A DNA stretch of 64,000 nucleotides from Eledone cirrhosa (GCA_964016885.1 OZ024740.1:73160001-73224000), one strand, 5' to 3'; shown: positions 4,488 through 64,000, counted from the stretch's first letter. Made by a program: numbers and translations. The notes: generated by a model not told the origin, from the sequence alone.

Positions 4488-4505
4488 TATACATATATAT
4501 ATATA

Positions 4506-10418: not shown

Positions 10419-10421
<3 letters not shown>
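10218..10421. mobile_element. Fold-back PLE-like terminal remnant (family X), copy 2
   Basis: Matches 4506-4700 and 30634-30843 in the opposite overall orientation. (TA)n on both sides. Confidence 0.65.
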
Positions 10422-10453
<32 letters not shown>

Positions 10454-10647: not shown

Positions 10648-10992
10648 GGAGGACATGATATGAAGGTTAAAAAACACTTGTGGATAGTGCAGTTTTAAAT
10701 CAACATATGAAAAGTAGTTTTAGATTGATGTGTGATATTGGGAAAAAAAATATTTGAGGGCGGTGGGTGGAAAGGATGAAAAAGAGGAGGAGATGAGAGT
10801 AAAAAGTGGAGCGGGAGGAGTATAGTGAGGAAGGATGAGATAGGAGGAGAGATGGGTGATAGAGAGAGAGAGATAGCTTTTATAACTGAGAAAAATATAT
10901 TGTTTTACATAGAGAGGTTGAAAAAACCATTGGAAGATAATGTATAAATTAAAAGAATTTGAAAATTAACGAAGAGAAAAATAATGTAAAGA

Positions 10993-19614: not shown

Positions 19615-21240
19615 CTATATATAGGGCTTAAAGTTTTGGAAGGAATGTCTGAGGCGGTGCTGGCAAGTTGCAAACACCTCAGATTTTTTGTTAAGTAGGT
19701 TACGGTTGGAGAAGATAATATTGTGTGTCTCTAGTATACAGAGGTTACAGAATTTATTAGGTGGTTTGTACGAGGTCGCGCTGCCTATCACTTCCCATTT
19801 GAGTGTGTATGGTTTATTTTTAGATTTTAGATAGTGTATGTAGCTAGAAAGTGAGGTGGAGTTGGCTAGGCTGTGCTTTTTGAACGAGTGGATGTGCGAG
19901 TTATATCTAATTTTGAAGCAGTTAGAAGTGGAGCCTACATAGGTTTCTGAAGAGTTATTAGTCGTGACTGTGCATGAGTATATGACATCCTTGGTTAGGC
20001 ATTTTTTATCTAAAGGGCAGGTTCTATTAGCTCTACAGTTACAATTATTCTGTGCGTTAGTCCGCTGGTTATAATGCAATGCGGAAGTCTGTGTGGTGGA
20101 TATAGGATTTTGGGTGTTCAGGTTGACAACCCTGGTGTTATTACTTATACTAGTGCTATTTCTATTGTTACTGCCGTTGCTATTGTTGCTTGCTACAGTG
20201 GTATTTAGAGGGTTTGCATCCCGTTGTGATTTTGTTTGTTGGAAGTAAGAACTAATTTTACTATTATTGCTGCTAGCTATGTGGTATGCTAAGTTAGGCG
20301 TCGTAGAGTATGAGATTTTAATGGTGTTTTTGTTTAAGAGGTTGTGGTACTTGTGTCCTAGAGGGAAGTTTTTATCTAGTAGTGAGAAGAAAGCCCTAGG
20401 TATGTTGGTGGAGACATTTAGGTTGAAAGGAGGGTTGAAAAATGTATTATTTCTTCTTCTATTTTTGCTTTTAGTGTTTGGTGTGTTGCTTCCTCCTAAG
20501 GCCTCACAGTAGTTTCCATGGTAATGGTTACTTCCGGTGGCACCCTCCGCTTTGGTGTACTTGTGGTTGCTATTCCTATTATTAGATTTCCTCATGGACA
20601 TGTTGTGCGAGATGATGTTGTAGCTATGTGTTTTCTTAGGTAGGAACTCTATTTCTATATTATGGCCGGAGCTAGCTAATGCTTGATTGTAATATTGTGA
20701 GTTTTTGCTAAATATGTTTGCGTCATAGGACAGACTAGAGATTCTATTGGACACCCCCTTAGAGATAGAGTTTAATATTGATCTAGGGTGATTAGACTTG
20801 GTATCTACGTAAATAAGTTTCTCATTAGGCTTATGGAAAGGTGTATATATTTTTGAGTCTAGGTATAGTGTGGCGTCTAGGAAGTTAACATTTTTAGTGT
20901 TTTTGTCCATGGTGATACTAAGGTTAAAGTTTTTGAATGTCTTATGCAGTTGTTTTCTAGTTCTTTCTATATTAAATTTTTTATATTCTATGAGTAGAAG
21001 TGCATCATCGCGGTACAAACCACCGTTGAGGTAAGGGAGGTCTTTATGGATTTCATTGAGGAGGTATAGGCCGACCAAATCAGTGACCTGCGCCGAGTCA
21101 CTAGATCCCATGGTTATGTCGAAGTTGTTGTGCGTATCCTTGCGTGTCCATAGTTGGTCCTCGAAGGTGATTATGGTTTTACGGGCCGCAAGGATGACAT
21201 CAACCTGGGCTCTAGTCAGGTCGCTATTGGTCATGGCCAT
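19615..21240 (-). pseudogene. 5'-truncated inverted copy of the PLE ORF (RT C-half + GIY-YIG)
   Basis: 541 aa matching the C-terminal part of the 21859-24318 ORF except T/M and C/W substitutions. A 10-nt deletion lies just upstream, near 21315. Confidence 0.93.
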
Positions 21241-21562
21241 GATAAGTGCCTTATTTAATAGGATAGGGGAAATAGAGGTGTAGTATGAATTGATATCAAA
21301 TTGAATAAATTTTTATTCTTGATATCCTTAAACCATTCAATGCACTATATAACCACTTATCTTCATGTTGTACTTTAACCTATATCTTTGATTTTTGATT
21401 GTACCTATTAATATAAATGTAATCTCGAAGTGTGTACTGCCACTCTAAATTCTGTAATGAATGTTGACCCACAATGTTTGAATATGTATCAATGTTTGAA
21501 TATGTATTGGTATGTCTCTCGGCTGAAAAGGAGGTCATATAACTGTCCATGCATTAATAAAT

Positions 21563-21609: not shown

Positions 21610-21858
21610 CAATAATGTTTTGAACAGTTCTTTGATTCTTATACTTCATATAACTGCTCTGTAAATCATCTGATGTTTTTACATTGAGCTACTTAACTTA
21701 CTGGTAATAAGGTAGTAATACATCACTGCCTACCACTATTTAGGGTGTGTGTAAAATACTTACAACTGCTTAAGGTTTTGTGTTTACATAACCATAAATA
21801 GTATAACTAATACTATTAACTGCTCCATATCGTTGAGCTGACATATAATATTGCCAAT

Positions 21859-24318
21859 ATGCTAATCAAAGACCAACTCCCCATGTCAACCAAGAACATA
21901 CCAATACCATCCAGGAATACATATGAGAAATTGCTGATCAACAGTGTAAATTCATTTATCAATAGAGTGAGATGGAGGACATTCCATTATGATAGAAACA
22001 AATCTAACAACTTGAATAATACTAACAATTTTGACTCCTTCGGCTTTAAAACCTTTAAAAGCCCCCCTCATAACACTCTACTTAACTCCTTTGAAAATGA
22101 CCTAGTTAAACTAGTTAAGAACATTAAATACAATAAGCACCATATTAGAAGCAACACCTTCTTAAACAAACTTAACACTTCTATTAGTGGATTCAAAACT
22201 AGTAATAAAATTATTGTACACGCAGATAAAACTAATAACATATACAGCCTAGATTATATTACTTATAGAAAGTTTATATATAATGAACTACATAAAAGCT
22301 ACAAAAAAACCACCTTGAAAAACTTAGAAGATATTAATGTAGAGGGTTATAATATAGTGTCTAAACTAGGACTACAGAGGCATACACAACCTTTCACTCC
22401 GAACCCCCCTAGATTCTCTCTGAAGGACCATAAGGAGAACTTCATCAGCAACCCCACGATAAGACTTATCTGCCCTTCCAAGTCCGACATTGGTATTGTC
22501 AGCAAGAAGATTTTGGATAAAATCATCCCACAAATTAAACACAAGATACACCTTAAACAATGGGGAAATACGGGTGAAGTAATTGAATGGTTTAAGGATA
22601 TCAAGAATAATAAGAACAAAAAATTTATTCAATTTGATATCAATTCATACTACACCTCTATTTCCCCTATCCTATTAAATAAGGCACTTATCATGGCCAT
22701 GACCAATAGCGACCTGACTAGAGCCCAGGTTGATGTCATCCTTGCGGCCCGTAAAACCATAATCACCTTCGAGGACCAACTATGGACACGCAAGGATATG
22801 CACAACAACTTCGACATAACCATGGGATCTAGTGACTCGGCGCAGGTCACTGATTTGGTCGGCCTATACCTCCTCAATGAAATCCATAAAGACCTCCCTT
22901 ACCTCAACGGTGGTTTGTACCGCGATGATGCACTTCTACTCATAGAATATAAAAAATTTAATATAGAAAGAACTAGAAAACAACTGCATAAGACATTCAA
23001 AAACTTTAACCTTAGTATCACCATGGACAAAAACACTAAAAATGTTAACTTCCTAGACGCCACACTATACCTAGACTCAAAAATATATACACCTTTCCAT
23101 AAGCCTAATGAGAAACTCATTTACGTAGATACCAAGTCTAATCACCCTAGATCAATATTAAACTCTATCTCTAAGGGGGTGTCCAATAGAATCTCTAGTC
23201 TGTCCTATGACGCAAACATATTTAGCAAAAACTCACAATATTACAATCAAGCATTAGCTAGCTCCGGCCATAATATAGAAATAGAGTTCCTACCTAAGAA
23301 AACACATAGCTACAACATCATCTCGCACAACATGTCCATGAGGAAATCTAATAATAGGAATAGCAACCACAAGTACACCAAAGCGGAGGGTGCCACCGGA
23401 AGTAACCATTACCATGGAAACTACTGGGAGGCCTTAGGAGGAAGCAACACACCAAACACTAAAAGCAAAAATAGAAGAAGAAATAATACATTTTTCAACC
23501 CTCCTTTCAACCTAAATGTCTCCACCAACATACCTAGGGCTTTCTTCTCACTACTAGATAAAAACTTCCCTCTAGGACACAAGTACCACAACCTCTTAAA
23601 CAAAAACACCATTAAAATCTCATACTCTACGACGCCTAACTTAGCATACCACATAGCTAGCAGCAATAATAGTAAAATTAGTTCTTACTTCCAACAAACA
23701 AAATCACAACGGGATGCAAACCCTCTAAATACCACTGTAGCAAGCAACAATAGCAACGGCAGTAACAATAGAAATAGCACTAGTATAAGTAATAACACCA
23801 GGGTTGTCAACCTGAACACCCAAAATCCTATATCCACCACACAGACTTCCGCATTGCATTATAACCAGCGGACTAACGCACAGAATAATTGTAACTGTAG
23901 AGCTAATAGAACCTGCCCTTTAGATAAAAAATGCCTAACCAAGGATGTCATATACTCATGCACAGTCACGACTAATAACTCTTCAGAAACCTATGTAGGC
24001 TCCACTTCTAACTGCTTCAAAATTAGATATAACTCGCACATCCACTCGTTCAAAAAGCACAGCCTAGCCAACTCCACCTCACTTTCTAGCTACATACACT
24101 ATCTAAAATCTAAAAATAAACCATACACACTCAAATGGGAAGTGATAGGCAGCGCGACCTCGTACAAACCACCTAATAAATTCTGTAACCTCTGTATACT
24201 AGAGACACACAATATTATCTTCTCCAACCGTAACCTACTTAACAAAAAATCTGAGGTGTTTGCAACTTGCCAGCACCGCCTCAGACATTCCTTCCAAAAC
24301 TTTAAGCCCTATATATAG
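21859..24318 (+). CDS. Penelope-like element polyprotein: reverse transcriptase + C-terminal GIY-YIG endonuclease (probably Hydra-type clade)
   Basis: Open 819 aa. HADKT (DKG-like), QFDINSYYTSI, TMGS, GLYRDD, NFLD and SNHP RT/thumb motifs. CNC-x5-CPL-x3-C, VIY...YVGST, R...H and CNLC..E...LN...CQH endonuclease motifs. Clade assignment is from recall of motif patterns, not a phylogeny. Confidence 0.95.
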   Translation: MLIKDQLPMSTKNIPIPSRNTYEKLLINSVNSFINRVRWRTFHYDRNKSNNLNNTNNFDSFGFKTFKSPPHNTLLNSFENDLVKLVKNIKYNKHHIRSNTFLNKLNTSISGFKTSNKIIVHADKTNNIYSLDYITYRKFIYNELHKSYKKTTLKNLEDINVEGYNIVSKLGLQRHTQPFTPNPPRFSLKDHKENFISNPTIRLICPSKSDIGIVSKKILDKIIPQIKHKIHLKQWGNTGEVIEWFKDIKNNKNKKFIQFDINSYYTSISPILLNKALIMAMTNSDLTRAQVDVILAARKTIITFEDQLWTRKDMHNNFDITMGSSDSAQVTDLVGLYLLNEIHKDLPYLNGGLYRDDALLLIEYKKFNIERTRKQLHKTFKNFNLSITMDKNTKNVNFLDATLYLDSKIYTPFHKPNEKLIYVDTKSNHPRSILNSISKGVSNRISSLSYDANIFSKNSQYYNQALASSGHNIEIEFLPKKTHSYNIISHNMSMRKSNNRNSNHKYTKAEGATGSNHYHGNYWEALGGSNTPNTKSKNRRRNNTFFNPPFNLNVSTNIPRAFFSLLDKNFPLGHKYHNLLNKNTIKISYSTTPNLAYHIASSNNSKISSYFQQTKSQRDANPLNTTVASNNSNGSNNRNSTSISNNTRVVNLNTQNPISTTQTSALHYNQRTNAQNNCNCRANRTCPLDKKCLTKDVIYSCTVTTNNSSETYVGSTSNCFKIRYNSHIHSFKKHSLANSTSLSSYIHYLKSKNKPYTLKWEVIGSATSYKPPNKFCNLCILETHNIIFSNRNLLNKKSEVFATCQHRLRHSFQNFKPYI

Positions 24319-30600: not shown

Positions 30601-30633
<33 letters not shown>

Positions 30634-30636
<3 letters not shown>

Positions 30637-30843
30637 CGAAGGAAATGTGGTAAGGAACCAGGTGGACCATAACGCACCAAAGTACTCAATACTTAGGGTA
30701 GTCGAGTGTGTAATAGGAACGAGTAGGACCCCGACGGCTGAGCTCAAGCCGTTTCGACGGCTAATTCTGGACTAAAAAAGTTTTAGTCCAGAATGAGCCG
30801 TCGAAACGGCTTGAGCTCAGCCGTCGGGGTCCTACTCGTTCCT
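30634..30843. mobile_element. Fold-back PLE-like terminal remnant (family X), copy 3
   Basis: Arms ~30714-30777/30781-30844. Matches 4506-4700 and 10218-10421. Confidence 0.65.
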
Positions 30844-33130: not shown

Positions 33131-33741
33131 ATGGTGGCTGCCAACTCGTTTTCGAGTACGGCCACTACTTTATATCCATATAGGAGAACCCCTACCGATG
33201 CGCCGAACGGGTGTGACTTTTTAGTCCAGCCAGCGACTTGAAAACTCTGGAACAAACACTACACTTGTGACAATTATTGACACATAGTGCTGGGCCCATG
33301 GTACCATGTGACGACAAGTGCAGAGAGATCTCCAGATATAAAGCAATGCCTGTGCCGTGAAGCTTTTATAGTGAGCAAAGGCACTGCACAAAGCCAGTCC
33401 CACTCTCTTAACCAAGATGATATTTACCAAAAAGAAGAACAAGTCAACATCATTGGATACCATCAGAGTCGCAGGTGTTATATCAGAGTTTTCCTTCTCC
33501 TAGAATTCTGCCTTGACAAAGGCTAAGGGGTCATCTCTCCCGGTGATTTTGGATGGCCATTGACTCTTAAGAGCTCCTTTGCCCTTTGACAGGTTTTGTT
33601 TTTAGTCCTGCAGGATGTCCAAAGTCACCCTCCTCACCAAGAAACCTTGGTGGGGTTGCCAGTTTAGTCGCCAACGACCCGACCATGAGACAGGTTGTAC
33701 TGGAATACATGTTACCAGTAGCACCAACTGGTGACCTGACA
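33131..33741 (-). mobile_element. ~600-bp non-autonomous RTE-derived element, copy 1
   Basis: Near-identical to 51610-52178 and 52200-52752. Carries CTAGGAGAAGGAAAACTCTGA, recalled as an RTE 5'-region motif. (TATG)n tail on the minus strand. No long ORF. Confidence 0.65.
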
Positions 33742-33944
33742 TATATACATACATACATACTGGTGACCTGACATACATACATACATACATACATACATAC
33801 ATACATACATACATACACAGAGAGTAGACCATAAAAGTTTAGTGTAAAATACTTTATTGACATATATAAGAGAAAGAAAAGTAGGAATACGTAGGAAATC
33901 TGTGAATTCTGTCATTAGTTATGTAATTCCTCCGCTATCTATCT

Positions 33945-34548
33945 AGACTGTATGTAAAATCCCCGGCATGTCTTTGTATTGTCCCCTTTTCTTGTGCGCC
34001 CTTGTGGCTAATAAAGAAATATATCTATCTAATACTGCCGAGTCCATAGTAAGGTTCAAACCGCCACCTTCGTTTAAAAACGAAAGAGAGGCGGTTTTCC
34101 TCTGTATGGTGGCTATGGTGAAAGAGGTAATATGGTGAACGAGATTGAGAGGACTGAGGACAGATGCCTTTCTCTCAGGACAACAGCTCATTCCCTTCTT
34201 TAGATACCACTTCAGAAGGAGAATCAGAGTGGAGAGAGAGGTACTGCACCCCAGTAAATTTACTGAAAGGTGGGTGAATGTGGCGAGAATGGCCCGAGTG
34301 ATTGGGCCTTCTTTGTATATAAACCTGTAGATTGAGAAAGAGAGCGAAAAGAAGAAAGGAGCACTTGCAAAACATGCTCCTGGAGTTGAGGGTTGTTCTA
34401 TCTACGGGGTATAAAAGAACCCATTTGTAACGCCTCCCCACTATTGGGCACTTCGATTGTTAAAATGTTTTTAATGTTTTAATTTCCCCGCCATATGTCC
34501 CCGCCATATGTCTTTGTATTGTCCCATTTCTTGTGCGCAGATAAAGAA

Positions 34549-34628
<80 letters not shown>

Positions 34629-34877
34629 CAGCCTGTAGGTTGAGGAACAGGAGGAGGAGAGGAAAGGGGTACAAACTCTTCGTACTCCTGGAGATGAGGG
34701 TTGCACATTTTTTCGGGGGTATGTGTTACCCATATGAACTGTCTCCCCCTATTGGGGAAAATCGACTAATTTTTTAAATTGCATTTGTGATAACATTTTA
34801 CACGTTTTTATTGTATGTAAACTTCCCCCTTTGTATTTGTCCCCTTCTTTTGTGCCCCTGTGGCTAATAAAGAAACA
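33945..34877 (+). mobile_element. Three short 5'-truncated Tx1-type LINE 3' ends (33945-34020, 34034-34549, 34629-34877)
   Basis: Each ends ..ATAAAGAAA followed by (TCTA)n. 34034-34330 encodes a degenerate ORF2 C-terminus (..RYHFRRRIRVEREVLH..). Confidence 0.85.
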
Positions 34878-34907
34878 TATCTATCTATCTATCTATCTGT
34901 CTGCCTA

Positions 34908-36753
34908 CATGCACAGCAGCCGCATCTGCTCTAGGGTCAAGGTGAACGGCTACCTCTCGGAGCCGTTCAAAATCGCGCGGTCCATCCGACAAGGGTGCCC
35001 TCTCTCCTCCCTTCTGTATGTGTTGACTCTCGAGCCACTACTGCGGAAGTTGGAGTTGTTGCAGGGCATCCCTTTGGAACCGGGATTGCGGAAAGCGGTG
35101 TCGGCCTACGCCGATGACGTGACAGTAATGGTGTCGACGGCCTCCGAAATCGAGGCGGTCGGCACCTTACTGGAGGAGTACGAAAAGTTCACAGGGGCTA
35201 AGCTGAACCGGAACAAGTCGATCGGTTTGCAACTCGGCACGTGGAGGGGCAGACCGATGCCCTCCGATGGCGTCGTCGGACGCTGGACGGAGGGCCCGGT
35301 GAAGTTGCTCGGGGTCTGGTTCGGACCGGACCTCCAGGTGGAGAAAAACTGGGCGGAGGTTACGAACAGGGTGTTTGCACTGACCCAGAAGTGGGCCAGT
35401 TGCAAACTATCCCTGAAAGGTCGGGCGGAGGTGGCGAACACCTACATAGCGTCCGTCATCTACTACCGCCTGACCGTAGTGCCCTGCCCAAGGGAAACCC
35501 TCACCAAGATGGAGCGCGCGCTCTTCCAATTCCTTTGGAAGAGGCGGGCTCCTATGGTGAGGAGATCCATCTGCTGTCAACACCCTTCGAAAGGAGGGCT
35601 GGGGATGCCGTGGCTAATGATGCGTAAACACGCATTAAGGCTACGGCACCTCTACGTATTCCTCACCGGACAACCGGTGTGGGCCTCGTTTGTGAGACGA
35701 ACCTTTCCCAGACTCGTCTCACTCACCGAGCTGCAATCCTGGGTCAAGCAAAGACCGAGAAAACTGGGCGCCTGGCACACTGAGTGTGCCCAGGCGCTCA
35801 CCGCCCTCTGGCAGGCGGATCCGGTTATCAGTGGAGACTCCACCGCAACATTCTATAGAGGGCTGGTACGCAGCAGGTGCGACGACGCCCTCGGAGAAGC
35901 CCTAGACATGGAGGAGGACGAACTGGCCAGCCTGTTCGGTAGGACATTCAGCCCGGGACCTATGGACAACTTCCAGAAGTCCCTGGCCTGGCAGTGCTAC
36001 CGAGGGGCTTTACCCGTTCAAGAAAGGCTCTACAGACACGGGCGCCCGGGTAGGGACCCCGCCAATAAGATCTGTCCCAGATGCGTGTGCGACGAGGAAA
36101 CCGTTGCACACGCATTGGTACACTGCTCGGGCGTAGCCGATCTGTGGAGCTATGTCGAACAACTGCTGTCAAGGGTGGGACCGATCCGGTTGACCACCGA
36201 GTCTATTGTAATGATCAAGCCGCCTCCCCCCTTCAAAGATGAAGCAGAGGCGGTGTTTCTGTGCGTAATAGCCATGGCGAAAGAGGTTGTATGGTGGACG
36301 CGTCTGAAAGGACTGAGGTCAGGCACCTTTCTCTCTGGCCAACAACTGGTCCGTTTCTTCCGATATCATTTCGGAAGAAGGATCAGGATGGAGAGAGAGG
36401 TGCTGCACTCCAGCCGTTTCTATGAAAGATGGGTGAAAGTGGCGAGAATGGCCCGTGTGAATGGGCCTTCACTCTACATCAGACTATAGGTGAGGAAGAT
36501 GAAAGACCAAGGGAGCACCCCTTCTCTGTGCTCCTGAGGAGAAGGGTTGCACACTTTTTTCGGGGGTGTGTGCGACCCCCCAAGGCGCCTCCTCTCTATT
36601 GAGGATTTTGTTAAAAATTTTATTTTTTGTTATATCTTATTTTATTTTTATATTTTGTTATTGCCTCCTCCTTATTGAGGACGCCTTTTTGTGTAAACTC
36701 CCCCCTTTGTACTTGTCCCACTTTTGATGCCCTAGTGGCAAATAAAAGAAACA
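34908..36753 (+). mobile_element. 5'-truncated Tx1/L1-type LINE (ORF2 RT C-half open to 36489)
   Basis: RQGCPLS, AYADD, CPRC..ETVAHALVHC; 3' UTR with AATAAA then (TCTA)n. The first ~26 codons of the listed ORF come from upstream repeats. Confidence 0.92.
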
Positions 36754-37026
36754 TATCTATCTATCTATCTATCTATCTATTTTATTTTATTTCATCCTAG
36801 CTGTCGTCTGTTCTACAGTGTGGATGTCATTCACTTCGCACAGAAGTTTTGTTCAAATTTATTGAGGAAATTTTGTGAGTTCAAACTTAATTTTGATACA
36901 ATTGTGTAGCTTGACCCTCCGTCTGAACTGTCAGGCGGTGGGTCAGCTCATCTTTACCCCTCCTAGAGGTGAAAAACCTGTTTTAAAAAAAAATTTTGTG
37001 TAAAAAATTTCAATCGTCTAACAGAA

Positions 37027-38904
37027 ATGTTAAACGCAGCGAACGAAAATAGTGGTGGGGGGACAGCGGTAAGAGTTGTAAGCTCGCACGCTTTAGTCCT
37101 CCCTTCCTTCCCAACTAACGTCATAGAGAAGGAAGGAAAAATGAAAATAAAAACGGACGAATCTGCGGAGAAAAAATTAAATGACGAAAACAACGAAGAA
37201 AAAAAATTTGAAAAATTGCATGACAATACTAATAACACAAACAAAGACACAACAAACAAAAAAATAACAGTTGAAAATAACATAATATCAGAAAACAAAG
37301 CAGACGACAAGATTTCATTTGCACAGAAAACAAAGAAATCTTTGACTTATATAGCGGAAAACATTTCAGATGTGGTACGAAGGATCACGGACGCAAAACA
37401 ATACATAAGTGAAGGTGAGAATGGTATTTTATTGGTAAAAATGCCTCAAGAATTCACGAAAGACATTGAAAGCCGAACGGTCAAGTTTCGGACCATCAAC
37501 AACAGTACAAAAAAACCTGAACAGCCTTCTCAAGCAGATATCAAAACAGTACTCGCAGAAGTACTGAATGAAACAACTTTCATAAGAAAAGACAGACTGT
37601 ATGGAAGCCTAGCAATTATCATGAAGAACGAATCGGCGGCAAAAAAATGTGCTTTGTCACCGATTCGTTCGAAAAATTTCACCTTTTATCCATCTTATAT
37701 GGGGAAAAAAACTCAACGCATATGGCTGGATGCAATGATGCCAGATGTGGACTACTGCTGGCTCATAGCTGGCTTCATCGATCCAGTGAATGACAACGTG
37801 ATTTCCATTGGGAAAACCACAGGCAATGCGTTCAGTGGAACAGGTATAGAGCTGGTAGTACAAATGAAGCCTGAACGCATCGCCCAAATACCCGACAGAA
37901 TCCTATTAGAGGACCACGGGTATATAAACATTAGCGTGGAGGGGAGAAGGCCGTCCTGCCATATCTGTGCAGGCAGAGGGCACCTGAAGGCCGCTTGTCC
38001 CCAACTCAACAAAAAGAAAACCCTGCTACCAACACCAGCTCCACCACCACCACCACAACAGATAAACAAACAACAAAACTCAGTCCCACCCAACCCGTCC
38101 CTCAGTAACACCACAACACCACCACAACACAAACAGTCACAACACATTACCCCAAAACAAAATACAGGCCCACCCAACCTCTCACTCAATAAAACAACAC
38201 AACCACCGCAGACACAACACACAACACAGTCTAACATAGTGACATCCATCTCCCCCACAAAGAAAACCAACACGGAAACATTACCAGCAAACATACCTCT
38301 TCCCTCCAACACTGAAGATAACCCAACGAATTCGGAGGAAGAAACGGAGTCCTTCAGACAGATTAAAAGGAAAAAAAGAAAACATGTGCAAAACACACAA
38401 GGACAAACAACCCCCACCCAAATCGCAACACAATCTAACAAAACAGAAAACACCCCTCCAGCAACAAACAAAACCAAACCTGCCCCTCCCCTCTTCGAAA
38501 CACTCACACCATCGGAAAAAAAGACATTACACTATACTTACATCAACAGAAACAATAATAAATTAAATGAACTCATATACAATAATCCTTCGGTACAAAC
38601 CGAAGGTGTAAACTTTGTTTCATCAGAAAACCACCCACATTTAAAACTAATAAAAATCCCAATGAACCTCTACCAAAAACTAAAAAAGGATTTTAAGGAG
38701 GACGTAGGACCACCCTCTGTCAAACCCATAAACCGCGTCCTACTAAAAAGCTTTCCCCCTCCCCTTCCCCTCCCCAACACAACTCCAAACACCCCAACCC
38801 CACCACACACCGACGACCCCACACCACCACAAGACACCCCTTCACCCAACACCCCCGACCCCATGGAAGTCGTGCAACCCGAACCCCGGGAAGCGGAAAG
38901 GTAG
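37027..38904 (+). CDS. LINE ORF1p (gag-like nucleic-acid-binding protein with zinc knuckle)
   Basis: 625 aa open; ISVEGRRPSCHICAGRGHLKAAC (CX2CX4HX4C); P/T/Q-rich tail. Lies 33 nt upstream of ORF2. Confidence 0.9.
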   Translation: MLNAANENSGGGTAVRVVSSHALVLPSFPTNVIEKEGKMKIKTDESAEKKLNDENNEEKKFEKLHDNTNNTNKDTTNKKITVENNIISENKADDKISFAQKTKKSLTYIAENISDVVRRITDAKQYISEGENGILLVKMPQEFTKDIESRTVKFRTINNSTKKPEQPSQADIKTVLAEVLNETTFIRKDRLYGSLAIIMKNESAAKKCALSPIRSKNFTFYPSYMGKKTQRIWLDAMMPDVDYCWLIAGFIDPVNDNVISIGKTTGNAFSGTGIELVVQMKPERIAQIPDRILLEDHGYINISVEGRRPSCHICAGRGHLKAACPQLNKKKTLLPTPAPPPPPQQINKQQNSVPPNPSLSNTTTPPQHKQSQHITPKQNTGPPNLSLNKTTQPPQTQHTTQSNIVTSISPTKKTNTETLPANIPLPSNTEDNPTNSEEETESFRQIKRKKRKHVQNTQGQTTPTQIATQSNKTENTPPATNKTKPAPPLFETLTPSEKKTLHYTYINRNNNKLNELIYNNPSVQTEGVNFVSSENHPHLKLIKIPMNLYQKLKKDFKEDVGPPSVKPINRVLLKSFPPPLPLPNTTPNTPTPPHTDDPTPPQDTPSPNTPDPMEVVQPEPREAER

Positions 38905-38937
38905 GTCTCTACACTCTCCTTTGGCTCTGCCGCCCAC

Positions 38938-41900
38938 ATGGATGTGTTAAGAGTAGGATGTTTGAATGCACGTGGCCTGGGCTCAACTTGGAAGCAAGCA
39001 AAGCTTCTAAATGACCTCAGGTCATGTAGTATAAATGTAATGGTTATCTGTGAGACTCGAATCAGCGTCATGCGGCAGCTGGCCCCCACCTTCGATGACT
39101 TTGAGGTGCATGCATCTCTCTGTCAACCTGGAGGTGGGGGTGGGGTTGTCGTGCTGCTGCAAAAACACCTGGGTCTTGCCGTACAGGTTGTGCACTCGGA
39201 CCCGGAGGGTCGTTTGTTGGTGCTAGACGTTGGCAGTAGTGAAAGTGCGGCCTTGAGACTGGTCGCCGTCTACTCCCCTTTCGGAGCTGAACGGCCCGAC
39301 TTCTTCCAGCGTTTGGAGACTTTTCTGGGAACGTCGCGTTCCCTGCTTCTAGCGGGGGATTGGAATGACATCCTGGATGCACGTTGGGACTATGCAGGAG
39401 CATGTCCTAATAGAGGGGGGTGTAACAGCCTCAAGGGGTTACTCGACCGTTTTAACTTGGTCGATAGATATCGACTAGATTTTCCAACTGTGCCTACCTG
39501 GACTTGGAGAAACCACAGTGGTCAATCTAGATCGTACTTAGATAGATTCTTAGTTAGAAGTAAGGATAGGGACATATTAAGCTGTCCAGAAATGCGCACG
39601 GTTGGCTACACGGATCACAAATTAGTGACCTGCGTGGTCAATCTCGAGAAAACACATAGACAGGGTCCCGGTTACTGGAAACTTAATTTGTCGTTACCGG
39701 CAAAAGAGACTTACAGAAACCGGATTAGCAGATTAGGTAAGGAGAGGTTGACGGGTGCAATCGTCAACAACCGATGGTGGGCATCTCTCAAAAGAGAGAT
39801 TAGAACAGAATCAATAAGTTATAGCAAGATGTTAGCTGCCAATAGGAATAGAAACGAGAAAGAATTAACAGGTAAATTAGAAGAGGCAATCAAGAGCGAA
39901 GATGTGGCCAGAGTGATGGCATCGAGGACGGCCTTGAACCAGTTTTTCGATGCAAAGCATGAAGGCTGCGTCATTCGAAGTAAAATACGTGCTCTAGGTA
40001 ATGAGGGGGCCAAAGCCGTTGGATGGGCCCGCGTGACAGAAGCTAAAAGTGGAAATCGATCCACCATCCGGTCGTTGCAAGACGAAGATGGACGAGTGAT
40101 CCGGGAGCCTAAGCAGATGTGCGAGGCCTTTCAAAAGCACTTTGCCCGATTGTTCGGGGGAGGCGAGGGTCCGGGCCGGGGCGTGGATTTCGGTCCATAC
40201 CTCGACGGCCTGCCGCGTCTCTCGAACAAAGAGGCAGAGTCCTGCGAGGGACCAATCTCGGCTGATGAGATCGGAGATGCGCTGAGCCAATGCAGCAGAC
40301 GCAAATCTCCAGGTCTCGATGGTATACCTTACGAACTTTATTTAGCAATGCCGGTCTTCTTCTCCGAACTCCTCGAAGCGGTCTACTGCAATTGGCGGCA
40401 GAACGGGAGAATTCCTTGTTCTGTAGCCAAGGGCGTAGTCACGCTGGTGAGGAAGGACGAGAACAAGGGGGATAGTATAAATAATTTTCGGCCCATAACC
40501 CTGCTAAACACAGAGTTAAAGATTTTGGCCAAGGTGTTAGCAAAGAGGTTGGCGCTTGTCGTGGGTGGCCTGGTGGGAGATGCGCAGACACGTGCTATCC
40601 CATCCAGGTCCATTCACGATAACCTCCACCTCATGCGATACATCATAGAGAGGGTTGGCAACAAACCCGGCTTCGGTGGGGCCCTGATCAACTTGGATCA
40701 GTCTAAGGCCTTCGATAGGGTCGACCATGGTTACCTGGATGCGGTGCTAGCGGCGGCTGGGTTCGGTCCTGTTTTCAGAGGCTGGATCACTGCCCTACAT
40801 AGCAACCACATCTGTTCTAGGATCAAGGTGAACGGCTACCTTTCGAAGCCGTTCGAAATCACACGATCCATTCGACAGGGGTGCCCTCTCTCCTCCCTTC
40901 TGTACGTATTGACTCTCGAGCCTTTACTGAGGAAGTTGGAGTTGTTGCAGGGTATCCCCCTGGAACCAGGATTGAGCAAAGCGGTGTCGGCCTATGCCGA
41001 TGACGTAACAGTAATGGTATCAACCGACTCGGAGATCGAGGCGATCGGTACCTTACTGGAGGAGTACGAAAGGTTGTCAGGAGCGAAACTGAACCGGGAA
41101 AAATCCATCGGGCTGCAACTCGGAACGTGGAGAGGCAAACCGATGCCTCCTGACGGTGTCGTCGGACACTGGACGGAGGGCCCGGTAAAGTTGCTTGGGG
41201 TCTGGTTTGGACCGGACCTCCAGGTGGAAAAGAACTGGAACGAGGTTACGAACAAGGTGTTTGCACTAACCCAGAAATGGGCCAAGTGTAAGCTGTCCCT
41301 AAAAGGCCGGGCGGAGGTGGCGAACATTTACATAGCGTCCGTCACTTACTACCGCCTGACTGTCGTGCCTTGCCCTAAGGAAACACTCACCACCATGGAA
41401 CGCATGCTCTTCCAATTTCTTTGGAAGAAGCGTCCTCCTATGGTGAGAAGATCCATCTGCTGCCAACAACCTTCGAAAGGAGGGCTGGGGATGCCGTGGT
41501 TGATGATGCGTAGGCACGCATTAAGGCTACGGCACCTACAGGTATTCCTCACTGGTCAACCGGTGTGGGCTCCGTTCGTAAAACGAGCCTTTCCGAGACT
41601 CGTCTCACTCACCGAGCTACAGTCCTGGGTCAAGCAAAGATCCGGAAAACTGGGAGACTGGCACACTGAGTGTGCTCAGGCGCTCAGGGCTCTCTGGCAA
41701 GCGGGCCGGGCCATCGGTGGAGAATCCACCTCATCATTCTATAGAGGGCTGGTGGCTAGCAGGGGCGATGACACCCTTGGAGAGTCGCTGGACATGGAGG
41801 AAGACGAACTGGCCAGCCTGTTCGGTAGGACTTTCGGCCCAGGACCAATGGACAACTTCCAGAAGTCACTGGCCTGGCAGTGCTACCGAGGGGCTCTACC

Positions 41901-42375
41901 CGTTCGAGAGAGGCTCTACAGACACGGGCGTCCGGGCAGGGATCCCTCAAAAAAGATTTGCCCTAGATGCGTGCGTCACGAAGAAACCGTGGCGCACGCA
42001 TTGGTGCAATGTCCGGGTGTGGCTGATCTGTGGGGCTACGCCGAACAACTGCTGTCGCGGGTGGCGCCGATTAAATTGACCGCCGAGTCCGTGATGACAA
42101 TCAAACCGCCTCCCCTCTTCACAAAGGAAGCAAAGGCGGTTTTTCTGTGCGTAATAGCCATGTTGAAAGAGGTTGTTTGGTGGACACGATTGAAAGGTCT
42201 GAGGTCAGGCAACTTCCTCTCTGGCCATAGTCTGGTCTACTTCTTCCGATATCACTTCGGAAGAAGGATAAGAATGGAGAGAGAGGTGCTTGGCCACAGG
42301 CAGTTTTATGAAAGGTGGGTGATAGTGGCGAGAATGGCTCGTGTAAATGGGCCTTCTCTGTATACCATCCTGTAG
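38938..42375 (+). CDS. LINE ORF2p: APE endonuclease + reverse transcriptase + C-terminal Zn motif
   Basis: 1145 aa open. LNARGL, CETR, VYSP, GDWN, YLDRF and TDHK (APE). KSPGLDG, FRPITLLN, DQSKAFDRVDH, RQGCPLS and YADD (RT). CPRC..H...C. Confidence 0.96.
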   Translation: MDVLRVGCLNARGLGSTWKQAKLLNDLRSCSINVMVICETRISVMRQLAPTFDDFEVHASLCQPGGGGGVVVLLQKHLGLAVQVVHSDPEGRLLVLDVGSSESAALRLVAVYSPFGAERPDFFQRLETFLGTSRSLLLAGDWNDILDARWDYAGACPNRGGCNSLKGLLDRFNLVDRYRLDFPTVPTWTWRNHSGQSRSYLDRFLVRSKDRDILSCPEMRTVGYTDHKLVTCVVNLEKTHRQGPGYWKLNLSLPAKETYRNRISRLGKERLTGAIVNNRWWASLKREIRTESISYSKMLAANRNRNEKELTGKLEEAIKSEDVARVMASRTALNQFFDAKHEGCVIRSKIRALGNEGAKAVGWARVTEAKSGNRSTIRSLQDEDGRVIREPKQMCEAFQKHFARLFGGGEGPGRGVDFGPYLDGLPRLSNKEAESCEGPISADEIGDALSQCSRRKSPGLDGIPYELYLAMPVFFSELLEAVYCNWRQNGRIPCSVAKGVVTLVRKDENKGDSINNFRPITLLNTELKILAKVLAKRLALVVGGLVGDAQTRAIPSRSIHDNLHLMRYIIERVGNKPGFGGALINLDQSKAFDRVDHGYLDAVLAAAGFGPVFRGWITALHSNHICSRIKVNGYLSKPFEITRSIRQGCPLSSLLYVLTLEPLLRKLELLQGIPLEPGLSKAVSAYADDVTVMVSTDSEIEAIGTLLEEYERLSGAKLNREKSIGLQLGTWRGKPMPPDGVVGHWTEGPVKLLGVWFGPDLQVEKNWNEVTNKVFALTQKWAKCKLSLKGRAEVANIYIASVTYYRLTVVPCPKETLTTMERMLFQFLWKKRPPMVRRSICCQQPSKGGLGMPWLMMRRHALRLRHLQVFLTGQPVWAPFVKRAFPRLVSLTELQSWVKQRSGKLGDWHTECAQALRALWQAGRAIGGESTSSFYRGLVASRGDDTLGESLDMEEDELASLFGRTFGPGPMDNFQKSLAWQCYRGALPVRERLYRHGRPGRDPSKKICPRCVRHEETVAHALVQCPGVADLWGYAEQLLSRVAPIKLTAESVMTIKPPPLFTKEAKAVFLCVIAMLKEVVWWTRLKGLRSGNFLSGHSLVYFFRYHFGRRIRMEREVLGHRQFYERWVIVARMARVNGPSLYTIL

Positions 42376-42611
42376 GTAAAGAAGTAAAGGAGAGGGGAGC
42401 ACCTTCTCCATGTGCTCCCCGGGCAAAGGATTGCACACTTTTTCGGGGGTGTGTGCAACCCCCATCACGTCCCCTCCCTTTTGAGGTTATTTTCGATTAT
42501 TTTCATGTTACACCCTTTTTACTCGATTATATGTAAACTCCCCCTTTGTATTTGTCCCTTCTTTTTATGCCTTTATGGTAAATAAAGAAATCTATCTATT
42601 TTATTTTATTT

Positions 42612-42717
42612 TTATATTTTGTTATTGCCTCCTCCTTATTGAGGACGCCTTGTTTTGTAAACTCCCCCCTTTGTACTTGTCCCACTTTTGATGCCCTGGT
42701 GGCAAATAAAAGAAACA
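42612..42717 (+). mobile_element. ~110-bp Tx1-type 3' UTR fragment
   Basis: Near-identical to 36647-36753; ends AATAAAAGAAACA-TATCTATCTA. Confidence 0.8.
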
Positions 42718-42938
42718 TATCTATCTATACACACACACAAATATATATATAAATGTCATATATTTTCCTATTCCTCACTCTACTACCCAAGTATTGAGTA
42801 CTCTGGTGCGTTATGGTCCATCTGGTTCCTTACCACAACTCGTTCGTTATATATATATATCTGACTGTCCGTCTGTTTGTCTATCTCTCTGTCTATCTAT
42901 ATATCTACCTACCTACCTATCTATCTATCTATCTATAC

Positions 42939-45048
42939 AGATTTTGGCCAAGGTGCTAGCAAAGAGGTTGGCGCTTGTCGTGGGCAACCTGGTGGGAGAT
43001 GCGCAGACATGTGCTATCCCGTCCAGGTCCATCCACGACAACCTCCACCTCATGCGATACATCATAGAGAGGGTTGGGAACGAACCTGGCTTTGGTGGGG
43101 CCCTGATCAACTTGGATCAATCTAAGGCATTCGATAGGGTCGACCATGGTTACCTGGATGCGGTGCTAGCGGCGGCAGGCTTCGGACCCGTTTTCAGGGG
43201 CTGGATCAATGCCATGCACAGCAGCCGCATCTGCTCTAGGGTCAAGGTGAACGGCTTCCTCTCGGAGCCGTTCGAAATCGCGCGGTCCATCCGACAGGGG
43301 TGCCCTCTCTCCTCCCTTCTGTATGTAGTGACTCTAGAGCCACTGCTGCGGAAGTTGGGTTGTTGCAGGGCATCCCGTTGGAACCGGGATTGCGGAAAGC
43401 GGTGTCAGCCTACGCCGATGACGTAACAGTAATGGTGTCGACGGCCTCGGAAATCGGGGCGATCGGCACCTTACTGGAGGAGTACGAAAGGTTTACAGGG
43501 GCTAAGCTGAACCGGGACAAGTCGATCGGTCTGCAACTCGGCACGTGGAGGGGCAGATCGATGCCCTCCGATGGCGTCGTCGGGCGGTGGACGGAGGGCC
43601 CGGTGAAGTTGCTCGGGGTCTGGTTCGGACCAGACCTCCAGGTGGAGAAGAACTGGGGTGAGGTAACGAACAGGGTGTTTGCACTGACCCAGAAGTGGGC
43701 CGAGTGCAAACTGTCCCTGAAAGGTCGGGCGGAGGTGGCGAACACTTATATAGCGTCCGTCATTTACTACCGCCTGACCGTTGTGCCTTGCCCAAGGGAA
43801 ACGCTCGCCAAAATGGAGCGCGCACTCTTCCAATTCCTTTGGAAGAAGCGGGCTCCTATGGTGAGGAGATCCATCTGCTGTCAACACCCTTCGAAAGGAG
43901 GGCTGGGGATGCCGTGGCTAATGATACGTAAACACGCATTAAGGCTACGGCACCTTCAGGTATTCCTCTCCGGTCAACCGGTGTGGGCCCCGTTTGTGAG
44001 GAGAGCCTTTCTGAGACTCGTCTCACTCACCGAGCTGCAATCCTGGGTCAAGCAGAGACCGAGAAAACTGGGCGCCTGGCACACCGAGTGTGCCCAGGCA
44101 CTCACGGCTCTCTGGCAGGCGGACCCGGCTGTCAGTGGAGAATCCACCTCGTCATTCTATAGAGGGCTGGTGGTTAGCAGGTGCGACGACGCCCTCGGAG
44201 AAGCCCTAGGCATGGAGGAAGACGAACTGGCCAACCTGTTCGGTAGGAAATTCAGCCCGGGACCCATGGATAACTTCCAGAGGTCCCTGGCCTGGCAATG
44301 CTACAGAAGGGCTCTGCCCGTTCGAGAAAGGCTCTACAGACACGGGCGCCCGGGTAGGGACCCCTCGAAAAAGATCTGTCCCAGATGCGTGTGCGACGAG
44401 GAAACCGTTGTACACGCATTGGTACACTGCTCGGCATTGCCGATCTGTGGGGCTATGTCGAACAACTGCTGTCAAGGGTGGGACCGATCCGGTTGACTAC
44501 CGAGTCTATTGTAACGATAAAGCCGCCTCCCCTCTTCAAAAACGAAGAAGAGGCGGTGTTTCTGTGCGTAATAGCCATGGCGAAAGAGGTTGTATGGTGG
44601 ACGCGTCTGAAAGGACTGAGGTCAGACACCTTTCTCTCTGGCCAACAACTGGTCCGTTTCTTCCGATATCATTTCGGAAGAAGGATCAGGATGGAGAGAG
44701 AGGTGCTGCATCCCAGCCGTTTTTATGAAAGATGGGTGAAAGTGGCGAGAAAGGCCCGTGTGAATGGGCCTTCACTCTACATCAGACTATAGGTGAGGAA
44801 AATGAAAGACCAAGGGAGCACCCCTTCTCTGTGCTCCCGAGGAAAAGGGTTGCACACTTTTTTTCGGGGGTGTGTGCGACCCCCCCTCCTCTCTATTGAA
44901 GACTTTGTTATAAATTTTATTTTTTGTTATATTTTATTTTATTTTTATATATTGTTATTGCCTCCTCCTTATTGAAGACGCCTTGTTTTGTAAACTCCCC
45001 CATTGTACTTGTCCTACTTTTGATGCCCTGGTGGCAAATAAAAGAAAC
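42939..45048 (+). pseudogene. 5'-truncated, frameshifted Tx1-type LINE (same subfamily as 34908-36753)
   Basis: ORF2 pieces in three frames (breaks near 43358 and 44435). Preceded and followed by (TCTA)n. Confidence 0.92.
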
Positions 45049-45049
45049 A

Positions 45050-45120
<71 letters not shown>

Positions 45121-45122
<2 letters not shown>

Positions 45123-46124
45123 CATTAACAGAGCTGCAGTCCTCGGTCAAGCGAAGACCGAAAATGGGCGCCTGGCACCTCGAGTGCCTTCAGGTGCTCA
45201 TAGCCCTCTACCAAGCGGAAATAGCAATCAGCGGGACTCCACTTCGACATTCTATAGGGGATTAGTGGAGGATAAGTGCGACGACGTTCTCTAGGCATGG
45301 AGGAGGACGAACTGACCAGTTTGTTCGGGAGGACTTTCCGTCCAGTGCCTATGGATAACTTCCAGAGGTCTCTGGCCTGGCAGTGCTACCGAGGAGCTCT
45401 ACCAGTTCGTGACAAAATCTACAGGCACGGACGCCCTGGCAGAGATCCTGCTAAAAGGACCTGTCCAAGATGCGAGCAGGACATCGAAACCGTTCTGCAC
45501 GCAATTGTTCAGTGCCCAGGGGTGACCGACCTGTGGAATTATGTCGAACAGCTGCTGTCACGTGTGGGACGCATCCAGTTGTCAGCCGAGTCCATCGAGA
45601 GGATCACCCCGCCGCCTTCATTTAAGAATGAAGGAGAGGCGGTTTTCCTCTGTCTGGTGGCTATGGCGAAAGAGGTAATATGGTGGACGAGGTTAAAAGG
45701 ACTGAGGGCAAACACCTTTCTCTCCGGACAACAACCCATCCCCTTCTTTAAGTATCACTTCAGAAGGAATGTGAGAGTGGAGAGAGAGGTGCTACACCCC
45801 AGTAAATTCGCTGAAAGGTTGGTGAATGTGGCAAAAATCGCCCGAGTGAATGGGCCTTCTCTGTATATAAACCTGTAGGTTGAGGAAGATAAAAAGAGGG
45901 AAGGCAGGAACACCTACAAAACGTGTTCCTGGTGTTGAGGGTTGTTCTATCCACGGAGTGTAAAACAACCACGCAGTAACGTTCCCCGCTATTGGGGATT
46001 TCGATTGTTTTATTTTATATATAGTTTATTGTTATTCATCATTGTTAAACATTTTATGTAAAACCCCTGCCGTCACATCTTGTAATGTCCCCTTTTTATA
46101 CGCCCCTGTGGCAAATAAAGAAAG
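45121..46124 (+). pseudogene. 5'-truncated Tx1-type LINE (subfamily like 34034-34549)
   Basis: MDNFQRSLAWQCYRGALP...CPRCEQDIETVLHAIVQC...; 3' AATAAAGAAAGATATCTAT. Confidence 0.9.
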
Positions 46125-46422
46125 ATATCTATTTGCTGTGTATTTTAACGTAGACATTATTTCATTTCTTCAAAGGATTTCGTACTAAAACTCTAATGTT
46201 GGGTGTGTATTTGTGCGTATGTGTGCATTTATGTATGTATGTATGTATGTATGCATGTATGTGTGTATGTATGTATGCATGTATGTGTGTATGTATGGAT
46301 GGATGGATCGATGCAAGTATAAATTAGAAAATATATACAAATACACGCGAGGTATGTTTACATTTATATATATGTGTGCATGCGTGCGTATCTATGTATA
46401 TGTATATATATATATATACTCC

Positions 46423-58089: not shown

Positions 58090-59055
58090 CTATATATATA
58101 TCATAAAACATGTCTATAGAATCACAAGATAAAATATATACTATTTCCTCTCCCAATTAGCATAATTAACTATATAAAAAATCGAATAGACCAGGCTATA
58201 CGAATGAGGCTTCTATGAAGGAATCTCCGACAAATAACCAAAACTAGCGCTTCGCGTCGACCGTAGCGGAATATTTATCGAATATTTCGACAGCGTAATC
58301 GCCTAGATACAGTCAACTAAGCAGAATTAGGTTTAAAATAAACTAGGAGAAAATAGAATACATTTAAATACCTCTACCATGGTTTCGTCCGTGTTTTGAG
58401 TTATCCAATAATTATGTAATAATTATATAAACTCGAGCGCCGGATTCTTCAGGAAGCTCGCTCATATCTAGACATTAAATTTTCCAAAACAATCGCGCCA
58501 AGAATTCATTTCAAAATGGCTAAAAATCGTGACGTGGTCGCGGTCAAGTTGGAAGGGGTGTGGTAGTTGCTTACGACTGGTGGCATTTTTGCTAGAAAGC
58601 ACAGCATAATACAGCCAAATTTGTATCTCAACCTAGTGGGAGATTATTACATATAAAAGTTTACATATATATCTACATACACATACATATACGTGTTTTG
58701 CAACTGGTCACTTTGTGGCTCAATGAAAAATTAATAAATTAAACAATCAGAGCTATATATCATAAAACATGTATATAGAATCACAAGATAAAATATATAC
58801 TATTTCCTCTCCCAATTAGCATAATTAACTATATAAAAAATCGAATAGACCAGGCTATACGAATGAGGCTTCTATGAAGGAATCTCCAACAAATAACCAA
58901 AACTAGCGCTTCGCGTCGGCCGTAGCGGAATATTTATCGAATATTTCGACAGCGTAATCGCCTAGATACAGTCAACTAAGCAGAATTAGGTTTAAAATAA
59001 ACTAGGAGAAACGCTGTAGAAATATTCGATAAATATTCCGCTACGGCCGACGCGT
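58090..59055 (-). mobile_element. PLE pLTR-like remnant (direct + inverted repeat) at the truncated 3' end of the Tx1-type element
   Basis: ~58095-58351 is repeated at ~58754-59011; 59018-59055 is the inverse of 58912-58949. Contains an HHR. Confidence 0.72.
58370..58457 (-). ncRNA. Type-I hammerhead ribozyme motif
   Basis: GCUUC-CUGAAGA-A-UCCG[long]CGGA-C-GAAA-CCAUGG(palindrome)-UA-GAGGU. Confidence 0.78.
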
Positions 59056-61994: not shown

Positions 61995-62029
61995 GTTTAA
62001 AATAGAGTGGAAAAGATGGGAAAGACCAC

Positions 62030-63942
62030 TTACCGTACTTTTCGTAGAAGAGGGATGGTTTTTCCATCCCTTCTCACTTGATCGTCTGGTGAAGGGACCG
62101 TTAAATCGTCCCTTCGGCTGGTCGTCGGCTCTTCTATGAGTATGTCCGAATATACTCTTCGGTTGAGTGTCCCGCCTAGGTCTCTGAAATCACCAACTGC
62201 GTTGGGGAATTTCGTTTTAATGTTTGTGTATTGTTTCTGTGCTATTTTTAGCAGTCTTATGTTAGTTGGCGTTTTGATTGGTGCTGGTATTATGTAGTCG
62301 TGTTGTGAAATGTCTGTGTGTTCAATTATGTAAGTCATTAGTTTCTTGTTGTGTGTATTTATTGCCGTGCATTTGTTTTTCTGGGGGTGGGGTGTGGTTC
62401 TGCTATTTTCTTGTCGTTGTTGCTGGGTGTGTGTGTTTTGTTGTTGTGTTTGCGATGTTGGTGTTTGTGGTGGTGGTGTTGAAGGTGTTGTTGGCGGTGG
62501 GGTTGTCGCCGGTGGTGATGGTGGTGCTAGTGTGGGTGGTGATGGTGTTGGTGGTGTTGCTGCTGTGAGTCTCTTTGCAGTAGCCTTTACCCTTTTTTCA
62601 TTTCTTTCCTCCCTTTTCAAAGGCGACGATGCGCTGCTTCTGCGTTTGTGCCTTCTTACGACCTTTTGCCATCCCTCTCCCACCTCACACTCCATGTCTG
62701 ATTCTGTGAGGTCGGGGAGGGGTACTAGCTCCACTCTTTCACTTGTTGTTGTTGGTGATGTTTGCACTGGAGTCTCTGTTGCAGCTGCATTTGGTATTGC
62801 TGTTGTTGTTGTTAATACTTCCACTGCTGCTGCTGTTTTTGATTTCCGTGGCGTGGGTATGGGTGCCACGGACCTATCGTTCCTGGTTGCCGCTTGTCCT
62901 GTTGCTGGTAGCCGTGGAGCCGGTTTCGGAAGGAGGGGGGGTTTCTCCTTTCTCAGGGTCTTCTCATTGCAGAAGGCCCTGAGGTGAGTCTTCGATCCAC
63001 AGCGAAAGCATTTCGGGCGTTTGCCCTCAACACTTATGGGCAGTTGAGTGCCATTATCGAAGTCTATCACATCCGGGATAGCTTCCATGCACTCCTGGTT
63101 GGTTTGGATTAACATCTCAATGGAGGTGCCGACCCAATCTTCTCTTACTTTTTTCTGTACTTGCAGTACAGTTGTTTTGTCCTCGATTCCGACGAGGACA
63201 GACGCGGCCAGCCAAGAAGGGGCCATCCCGGGAGGGGGGGGGGTACGTGGGTCAGTTTGACCCTCACAATTTTTTGCCCGCAGTAGGAGGGCACCAACAC
63301 CATTTCCTCGCTCCTTAGGGTCACTAAGGATTGAGCCTTTGCCTCATGGGGTGTGGCAAAAAGTACGTCTACGGTGGCATATTTCTTGCCTCGGGTGATG
63401 TGCGTTTTCCGCTGCCACACAGACCCCAAGGCTTTTTGTATTTGAGCCTCTGTTGCTCTTTCAACCCTACGGGATTTTGTACTTACTGTACAGTACGTGA
63501 CCGTACAGTGCTGTTGGGTTTCGAAAAATTTTTCCGCTGCCTTGCAGATTGCTCGGTGTCCAGTTTTTGTCACCATCTTCTTCGCTTCCTGTAATTCCTC
63601 ATTTGTTATGAGGATGGTTTCCAGGTTCTTTGCGATACCTGCAAACGAGATTGGTTTTTCTTTGATGCTGTTGTTGTTGTTGTCGTCAGAGCTGCTGTTA
63701 CTTTTGTTGTTGCTGCAGGTACTACGACTACTGCCGCCGCCGCTGTTGCTGTGGTTGTTGTTGTTGTTGCTGCTGCTGCTGTTGTTGTTGCTGCTAATGC
63801 TGTTGTTGTTTATGCTGCTGCTGATGCTGTTGCGGCTGCTACTGTTGTTTTCCTTGTCACTGTTGCTGCTGTTATTACGGCTGCTACTGCTATTATTCCT
63901 GACGTCAGACGAATGAAATGGGTTTTCGTATTTCCCGCACAC
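62030..63942 (-). pseudogene. Tx1-type ORF1 (zinc knuckle CFRCGSKTHLRAFC) split by a frameshift near 63235
   Basis: Homologous to 37027-38904 (ISFA, PSY.G.K, ISVEG.RP.C..C...HL.A.C). N-terminal poly-Asn/Ser tract. True start not identified; the 5' end may lie beyond the window. Confidence 0.85.
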
Positions 63943-64000
63943 TTTTTTCGTCGTTGTCGTCGTCGTGGAGAAATCTTACTCGCTTTGCACGTGATTTTTC

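Follow-up and report, generated by a model that had tools for sequence, protein, structure and literature searches.

Why eight pieces of LINEs should lie one behind another in the same orientation, each bordered by TATC repeats, is the question raised by this locus: the repeat may be the target that the elements enter or merely a tail that they carry with them. The window analysed, i.e., the whole 64,000-nucleotide stretch of Eledone cirrhosa DNA (C1:73,160,001–73,224,000; genome size 3.0 Gb), is very rich in microsatellites, and the eight pieces, all on the + strand, occupy positions 33946–46125. Eight co-oriented insertions had been proposed in an earlier note made from the sequence, and indeed all eight 3' ends, with the ending ATAAA(A)GAAA, are present on this strand, at positions 34019, 34549, 34875, 36751, 42590, 42715, 45047, and 46123. 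In every case two variable bases come next, and behind them stands TATCT; as the earlier note had stated, there is no poly(A). The per-position frequency of TATCT in the rest of the window is 0.002, which excludes chance as the source of eight such junctions.

Organisation of the LINE stack

Best matches and a phylogenetic tree assigned the pieces to six subfamilies, D2, D, E, B (three times), A, and C, where at least three had been suspected; compared with six different reference copies, the pieces showed best matches of 87–99%. The stack opens with a short outer flank of about 2.5 TATC units at the first target site (33936–33945, +). Insertion 1 (33946–34021) comprises the 3'-terminal ~75 bp of subfamily D2 (97% identity over 74 bp to copy L249), and insertion 2 (34034–34551) is a 5'-truncated copy of subfamily D, placed by 87% identity to L234 and by the tree. 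A (TATC)n array of ~19 units on the + strand (34552–34628) lies between it and insertion 3 (34629–34877), a 3' UTR fragment of subfamily E with 99% identity to L187, and then follows insertion 4 (34908–36753), a 5'-truncated copy of subfamily B (94% to L179) in which the ORF2 part is open up to a stop at 36489.

Insertion 5 (36793–42592) is a full-length 5.8-kb element of subfamily A, bracketed by a 19-bp target-site duplication (36774–36792 and 42593–42611). The 3' copy of this duplication reaches into the beginning of insertion 6 (42597–42717), a 3' UTR fragment of subfamily B (98% over 119 bp to L179). Since the duplication includes the first bases of this B fragment, the A element entered an older insertion at its 5' junction and for the same reason starts after 12 non-repeat bases; the suggestion that every insertion begins right after repeats therefore fails at 36793. 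The start of insertion 6 had been put at 42612; the insertion is real, but its true start is near 42597–42600.

A single (TCTA)n microsatellite, as assumed in the earlier note, is not what underlies the stack: a spacer of ~170 bp (about 42728–42900), containing a short dispersed non-LINE repeat with 18 hits, which are spread over 14 sequences and include 4 from the window, divides it, so that six insertions share one TATC site and the remaining two a further one. These two are insertion 7 (42939–45049), a 5'-truncated and frameshifted copy of subfamily B with 98% identity to L179, and insertion 8 (45121–46125), a 5'-truncated copy of subfamily C with 92% identity to L183, with a (TATC)n array of ~17 units (45050–45120, +) between them. 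Insertion 8 is followed by TATCTAT, an outer flank of about 1.75 repeat units (46126–46132), and then by unique DNA. Copies of the short dispersed repeat in the window, located at 42756–42850, 4505–4601, 10336–10422, and 30633–30719, are 88–93% alike, and elsewhere this repeat is sometimes found immediately upstream of TATC sites (e.g., at locus L270).

Coding capacity and abundance of the elements

The A copy, the only full-length one in the stack, contains ORF1 (37027–38904, +; 625 aa when counted from its first ATG, including a single CCHC zinc knuckle), one stop codon and then, in the same frame, ORF2 (38938–42375, +; 1145 aa), which comprises an APE domain, an RT domain with the YADD motif, and a C-terminal zinc-binding region. 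ORF1 had no match in the Pfam scan, and its look-alike clusters, at 0.90–0.92, were of the zf-CCHC type. ORF2 matched PF03372, PF00078, and PF13966, while no RNase H domain was detected in the Pfam scan; its best match among solved structures was human L1 ORF2p (E 6e-50). Prediction of the endonuclease structure from the single sequence reached a pLDDT of only 34, and an alignment-based model (57 sequences, pLDDT 94.5) was used instead; its top fold match was the L1 endonuclease, with a TM of about 0.8. The catalytic residues N10, E39, D141, N143, D202, and H227 are conserved, and ORF2 is intact in 9 of 15 full-length A copies.

An ORF2 with an N-terminal APE, an RT, and a C-terminal zinc-binding region, a separate upstream ORF1, 5' truncation, a fixed 3' end, and target-site duplication are traits of the L1 group (L1/Tx1), and on these features the elements are two-ORF L1/Tx1-type LINEs. 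A fungal match with 26% identity bears the name 'Transposon TX1 uncharacterized protein', which is too weak to count for membership in the Tx1 clade, and none of the six clusters of close homologues that were looked up carries a name. Contigs of two runs labelled as other organisms (X1 and X2) match ORF2 at 90–99%, so close relatives of the clade are present in data from other species.

A 17-base 3'-end pattern gave 27,244 matches in the genome versus 7 for the reversed control, and this number is a lower bound since the pattern misses subfamilies A and B. A query from subfamily A yielded 963 candidates, and all 40 that were scored are 100% identical over 301 bases; the fetched full-length A copies are 95.8–99.7% identical to that of the window. 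Judging by these copy numbers and identities, the LINE clade is abundant and recently active.

Sequences at the 3' and 5' junctions

Genome-wide, 12,775 of the 15,878 ends matching TGTGGCWAATAAAGAAA continue with NN-TATCT, about 20% being without an exact TATCT, and only 2 ends have the repeat reversed at a distance of up to five bases; thus, the proposed fixed orientation relative to the repeat is upheld well beyond the window. A run of at least six A residues after the 3' end was found at 2 of 244 loci. The two bases following GAAA track the subfamily rather than the target (mostly TC in A, CA in B, mostly GA in C, CA or TA in E), and in all B, C, and E cases with anchored duplications they are unlike the bases preceding TATCT in the target, which indicates that they are supplied by the element. 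As for the Kibi/Koshi-type targets (TC)n or (TTC)n, a (TC)n run was found behind just 224 ends of a related pattern, which belong to the ends lacking an exact TATCT; since the 30 examined are mixed ordinary TATC subfamilies, a separate (TC)n-targeting family was rejected. Short elements at four loci (L271, L280, L274, and L303) share the TGTGGCWAATAAAGAAA end yet do not align to the LINE panel, and ATTATT follows two of them; these are possible non-autonomous partners.

For the 5' side, loci were taken from the best matches to families A, B, C, E, and G (30 per search), and these samples lean towards young copies because they were chosen as best BLAST matches to the copies in the window; 70 ends picked by position at the start of C1 were added. 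Junctions were located by chaining alignments against natural reference copies. Duplicate loci, the copies belonging to the window itself, and 5' ends that stayed unresolved (18 of the TATC type and 14 of the G type) were left out.

The TATC repeat is a target and not a tail. Sense TATC is present within 25 bases of 91 of the 115 resolved TATC-type 5' junctions, antisense TATC at 3 and ATT at none, against a background of 101 in 2,934 windows (3.4%); 24 of the 115 flanks are without the repeat. The position-picked set alone, in which 13 loci overlap the main set and one locus is of the ATT type, shows 24 sense cases and 1 antisense case among 38. The earlier note had named non-TATC 5' flanks in most copies as the observation that would speak against a target, and the opposite was observed. 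PMC4494074 treats elements as microsatellite-specific when the target occurs in over 20% of flanks; here the repeat is found at 80% of 3' ends and 79% of resolved 5' ends.

Target-site duplications and the probable cut register

After five position-picked loci of the ATT type or of unresolved family had been set aside, 139 resolved TATC-type copies remained. An exact duplication of at least 10 bases which includes non-repeat letters and begins at the third base after GAAA was found in 28 of them, while shuffled pairs gave a mean of 2.7 and a maximum of 7; the real count peaks at +3. The length of the anchored duplication is 10–24 in 25 of the 28 cases. No anchored duplication was found in the other 111 copies, many of which have no readable one because they sit in pure repeat, whereas others look rearranged or deleted. 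Two of the duplications (L038 and L047) mark the joints between full-length copies in tandem and could stem from tandem duplication, and that of L024 lies within a longer repeat.

The 5' copies of the duplications give the target consensus TATC^TAT(C/A)TAT. Deviations from the repeat, such as TATAT in 4 cases and AATCT in 1, occur in both copies of the duplication, which means that the start of the repeat derives from the target DNA. From these alignments we infer a cut at TATC^TATCTAT, a duplication of mostly 10–24 bp, and an end without poly(A). The target is mostly (TATC)n, as had been claimed, but not exclusively pure repeat, since insertions also use the variants TATAT and TCTCT and isolated TATCT sites. 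The independent E-family copies L134 and L215 share the same lone TATCT in one non-microsatellite repeat, so one TATCT in its context can suffice.

Contigs of four public runs were also searched for an empty site with the region 33300–46220; no joint spanning the stack was present among the matches listed, short-read contigs being fragmented in repeats. Head-to-tail runs with at least three full-length A copies were noticed at L038/L039 (C1, about 348.917–348.935 Mb) and at L026/L027/L047.

A sister family in ATT repeats

The window also contains a copy of a sister family, G (59055–64000, –), which has lost its 3' end and is 70.6% identical to element A over 2.9 kb; the ORF2 of this family is about 70% identical. 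Family G ends in the same AATAAAGAAA-NN, but the next bases are ATTAT in 39 of 41 ends examined, and (ATT)n is found in 21 of 27 resolved 5' flanks and TATC in none. Across the genome, NN-ATTATT follows 9,355 of at most 11,366 ends. A midpoint-rooted tree of 65 sequences, computed from the ~350 bases at the end of ORF2, unites the 8 ATT copies in a single clade (support 1.0), and the TATC copies are distributed over several subfamilies.

The endonucleases of A and B are 80% identical to each other and 60–61% identical to that of G; the corresponding values for the RT are 88% and 73–75%. Within the endonuclease domain, 41 positions separate A/B/E from G. Segments 47–66 (…DDFE.[HY]ASLCQPGGGG) and 152–157 and hairpin position 194 (S or T) are common to the seven TATC subfamilies compared (A, B, C, D2, E, H, and J), with occasional deviations in decayed copies, and are different in G. 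These three segments (47–66, 152–157, and near 194) align with loops of the L1 endonuclease and are presumably DNA-facing. Work on TRAS1 and R1Bm supports a beta-hairpin that faces the DNA and matters in both elements (PMC1919474). The difference in target thus likely lies in the surface segments 47–66 and 152–157 and the beta-hairpin near 194, which, coming from a single contrast between a TATC and an ATT lineage, are candidates and not proof.

The G copy in the window is interrupted at its 3' end by another sequence (about 59055–58230, –), within which a ~265-bp block at about 59035–58770 recurs near 58375–58110. At nine other loci (L205, L206, L208, L209, L212, L216, L218, L223, and L236) the (ATT)n is followed by the same downstream repeat of ~1-kb scale, and two copies of the ATT family (L143 and L153) lie in what resembles the (AAT)n tail of a reversed SINE.

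Probable mechanism of insertion

Taken together, the stack probably consists of eight separate insertions with their 3' ends at TATC^TATCT, made in one orientation and with a short target duplication by elements whose APE domain likely recognises the site. The most likely process would be target-primed reverse transcription with an APE domain that reads the sequence. That the endonuclease itself chooses the site is suggested by analogy, namely by SART1/TRAS1 domain swaps, in which exchanging the endonuclease changes the target (PMC7265360), and by the TRAS1/R1Bm work mentioned above.

The endonuclease would nick the GATA strand at 5'-ATAGATA^GATA-3', and, following general LINE biology, the freed 3' end would prime at the last base of the element, two bases past AATAAAGAAA. 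As no poly(A) is copied, pairing with the repeat in read-through RNA may aid this step. A second cut about 10–24 bp downstream would then produce the target duplication that is seen, leaving TATCT on both sides, as is also seen. With TATCT on both sides, later copies of any subfamily could insert, and co-oriented stacks would grow. The retention of the target on both sides and the resulting self-stacking, both anticipated in the earlier note, are visible in the sequence in the form of the target-site duplication and the stack itself. The same process would operate in the sister lineage at ^ATTATT.

The leading rival, to which we give a low probability, is that pairing between RNA and DNA is the main selector: read-through transcripts would carry the TATC or ATT repeat of the donor, nicks would be only loosely specific, and only those that allow pairing would be used. 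It would account for the near absence of copied poly(A) (the 2 loci of 244 given above), for the repeat directly after the 3' end in every donor, for the repeat-like letters with which full-length 5' ends start, and for the young copy L017, which has six extra repeat bases on its 3' side. However, extra repeat units templated by RNA should then be frequent, while later-starting duplications were found in 6 of 139 copies, within the range of shuffled pairs (mean 2.7, maximum 9). Sites that deviate right at the junction are nevertheless used precisely (L036, L048, L239, and L272), and the four upstream bases, with which the RNA cannot pair, are mostly TATC (T in 22, A in 23, T in 24, and C in 25 of 28), although the repeat context inflates these counts.

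Much less probable still is the view that TATC is only a tail made by the element, which would insert loosely and form stacks where tails accumulate. The long 3' arrays of 17–19 units in the window agree with it, as do the 26 of 115 resolved copies which lie directly behind the tail of another element, but sense TATC is present upstream of 66 of the 89 copies in which no such tail was detected within 130 bp. Moreover, duplications with unique letters start at the first base of the repeat, and some copies (L025, L036, and L134) are almost without repeat after the 3' end. The counts of 5' flanks and duplications thus largely refute this explanation. Finally, the idea that the stack arose by local tandem duplication, or that repeat-rich DNA was misassembled here, hardly deserves credence. 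Tandem copies with identical 20-base junctions do exist elsewhere (L038/L039), but the eight pieces represent six subfamilies and are truncated at different points, and an order of insertion can be read from the 19-bp duplication.

The share of GATA arrays next to these elements was estimated from a small sample at one chromosome end, the first 30 distinct arrays of at least 5 TATC units on C1. Elements adjoin 22 of these arrays: 19 touch an element detected with the panel, 17 of them in the matching orientation only, and 3 lie before a 5' end that belongs to one more subfamily. A broader and more tentative proposal, which we regard as possible though doubtful, is that one LINE radiation split into GATA- and ATT-reading lineages through the three endonuclease segments, and that the GATA lineage flanks most long GATA microsatellites, the element and the repeat multiplying each other.

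Relation to known elements

Microsatellite-targeting Tx1 elements are represented by Kibi, (TC)n, and Koshi, (TTC)n, of teleost fish and by crocodilian elements in (TTCC)n/(TTTC)n (PMC4494074, PMC3812793; for context, PMC4640811). As here, they are APE-type non-LTR elements inserted in microsatellites, and related families occupy different repeat units (PMC4494074, PMC3812793); the differences are the (TATC)n/(GATA)n target, the ATT sister family, the invertebrate-type genome, and the tens of thousands of copy ends. The clade works like Kibi/Koshi and may belong to the Tx1 clade.

Dong belongs to the R4 clade and has a restriction-like endonuclease. Its target, (TAA)n, is of the same repeat class as that of the sister family (PMC3812793), but the element is listed as Dong-R4 in Table 1 of PMC13282606, whereas family G has an N-terminal APE. 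SART1/TRAS1 and Waldo/Mino (R1) resemble the present elements in their APE-type insertion, always at the same step of a simple repeat (PMC7265360). They differ in belonging to the R1 clade, in their telomeric or AC-type targets, and in the poly(A) of SART1, while here ORF2 is L1-like and poly(A) is absent. Human L1 shares the two ORFs in one frame, the short target duplications, and the ORF2/endonuclease fold match, but it has a poly(A) 3' end and a weak TTTT/AA preference, in contrast to the AATAAAGAAA-NN end at a repeat target.

Recently active families in an octopus genome have been described as well: Table 1 of PMC13282606 gives 13 recently active L1-Tx1 families with 421 insertions for Octopus vulgaris, and a term search of the main text of this annotation paper returned neither 'target' nor 'GATA'. 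No published GATA/TATC-targeting LINE was found in the literature search; Repbase and Dfam, outside its scope, may record one. As far as the literature search shows, the (TATC)n/(GATA)n target is new among microsatellite-targeting LINEs; that it is real is well supported.

How APE-type LINE endonucleases read and change their targets is described as poorly understood (PMC3812793, PMC7265360). Two young lineages with intact copies, the same 3' end, different repeats, and thousands of insertions each offer a comparison in which such a change of target can be followed, and the seven TATC subfamilies serve as replicates that provide a short list of residues for endonuclease swaps. In this genome, GATA microsatellite markers will often lie beside mobile and possibly polymorphic insertions.

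Another pair of repeats was noticed in the window, consisting of near-identical inverted ORFs of 565 and 832 aa (19615–21312, –, and 21820–24318, +). The 832-aa ORF had no match in Pfam or NCBIfam; the pair, which combines an RT-like GGLYRDD motif with a C-terminus of GIY-YIG-like character, resembles Penelope-like elements. A decayed relative of this pair is located at about 10990–12204.
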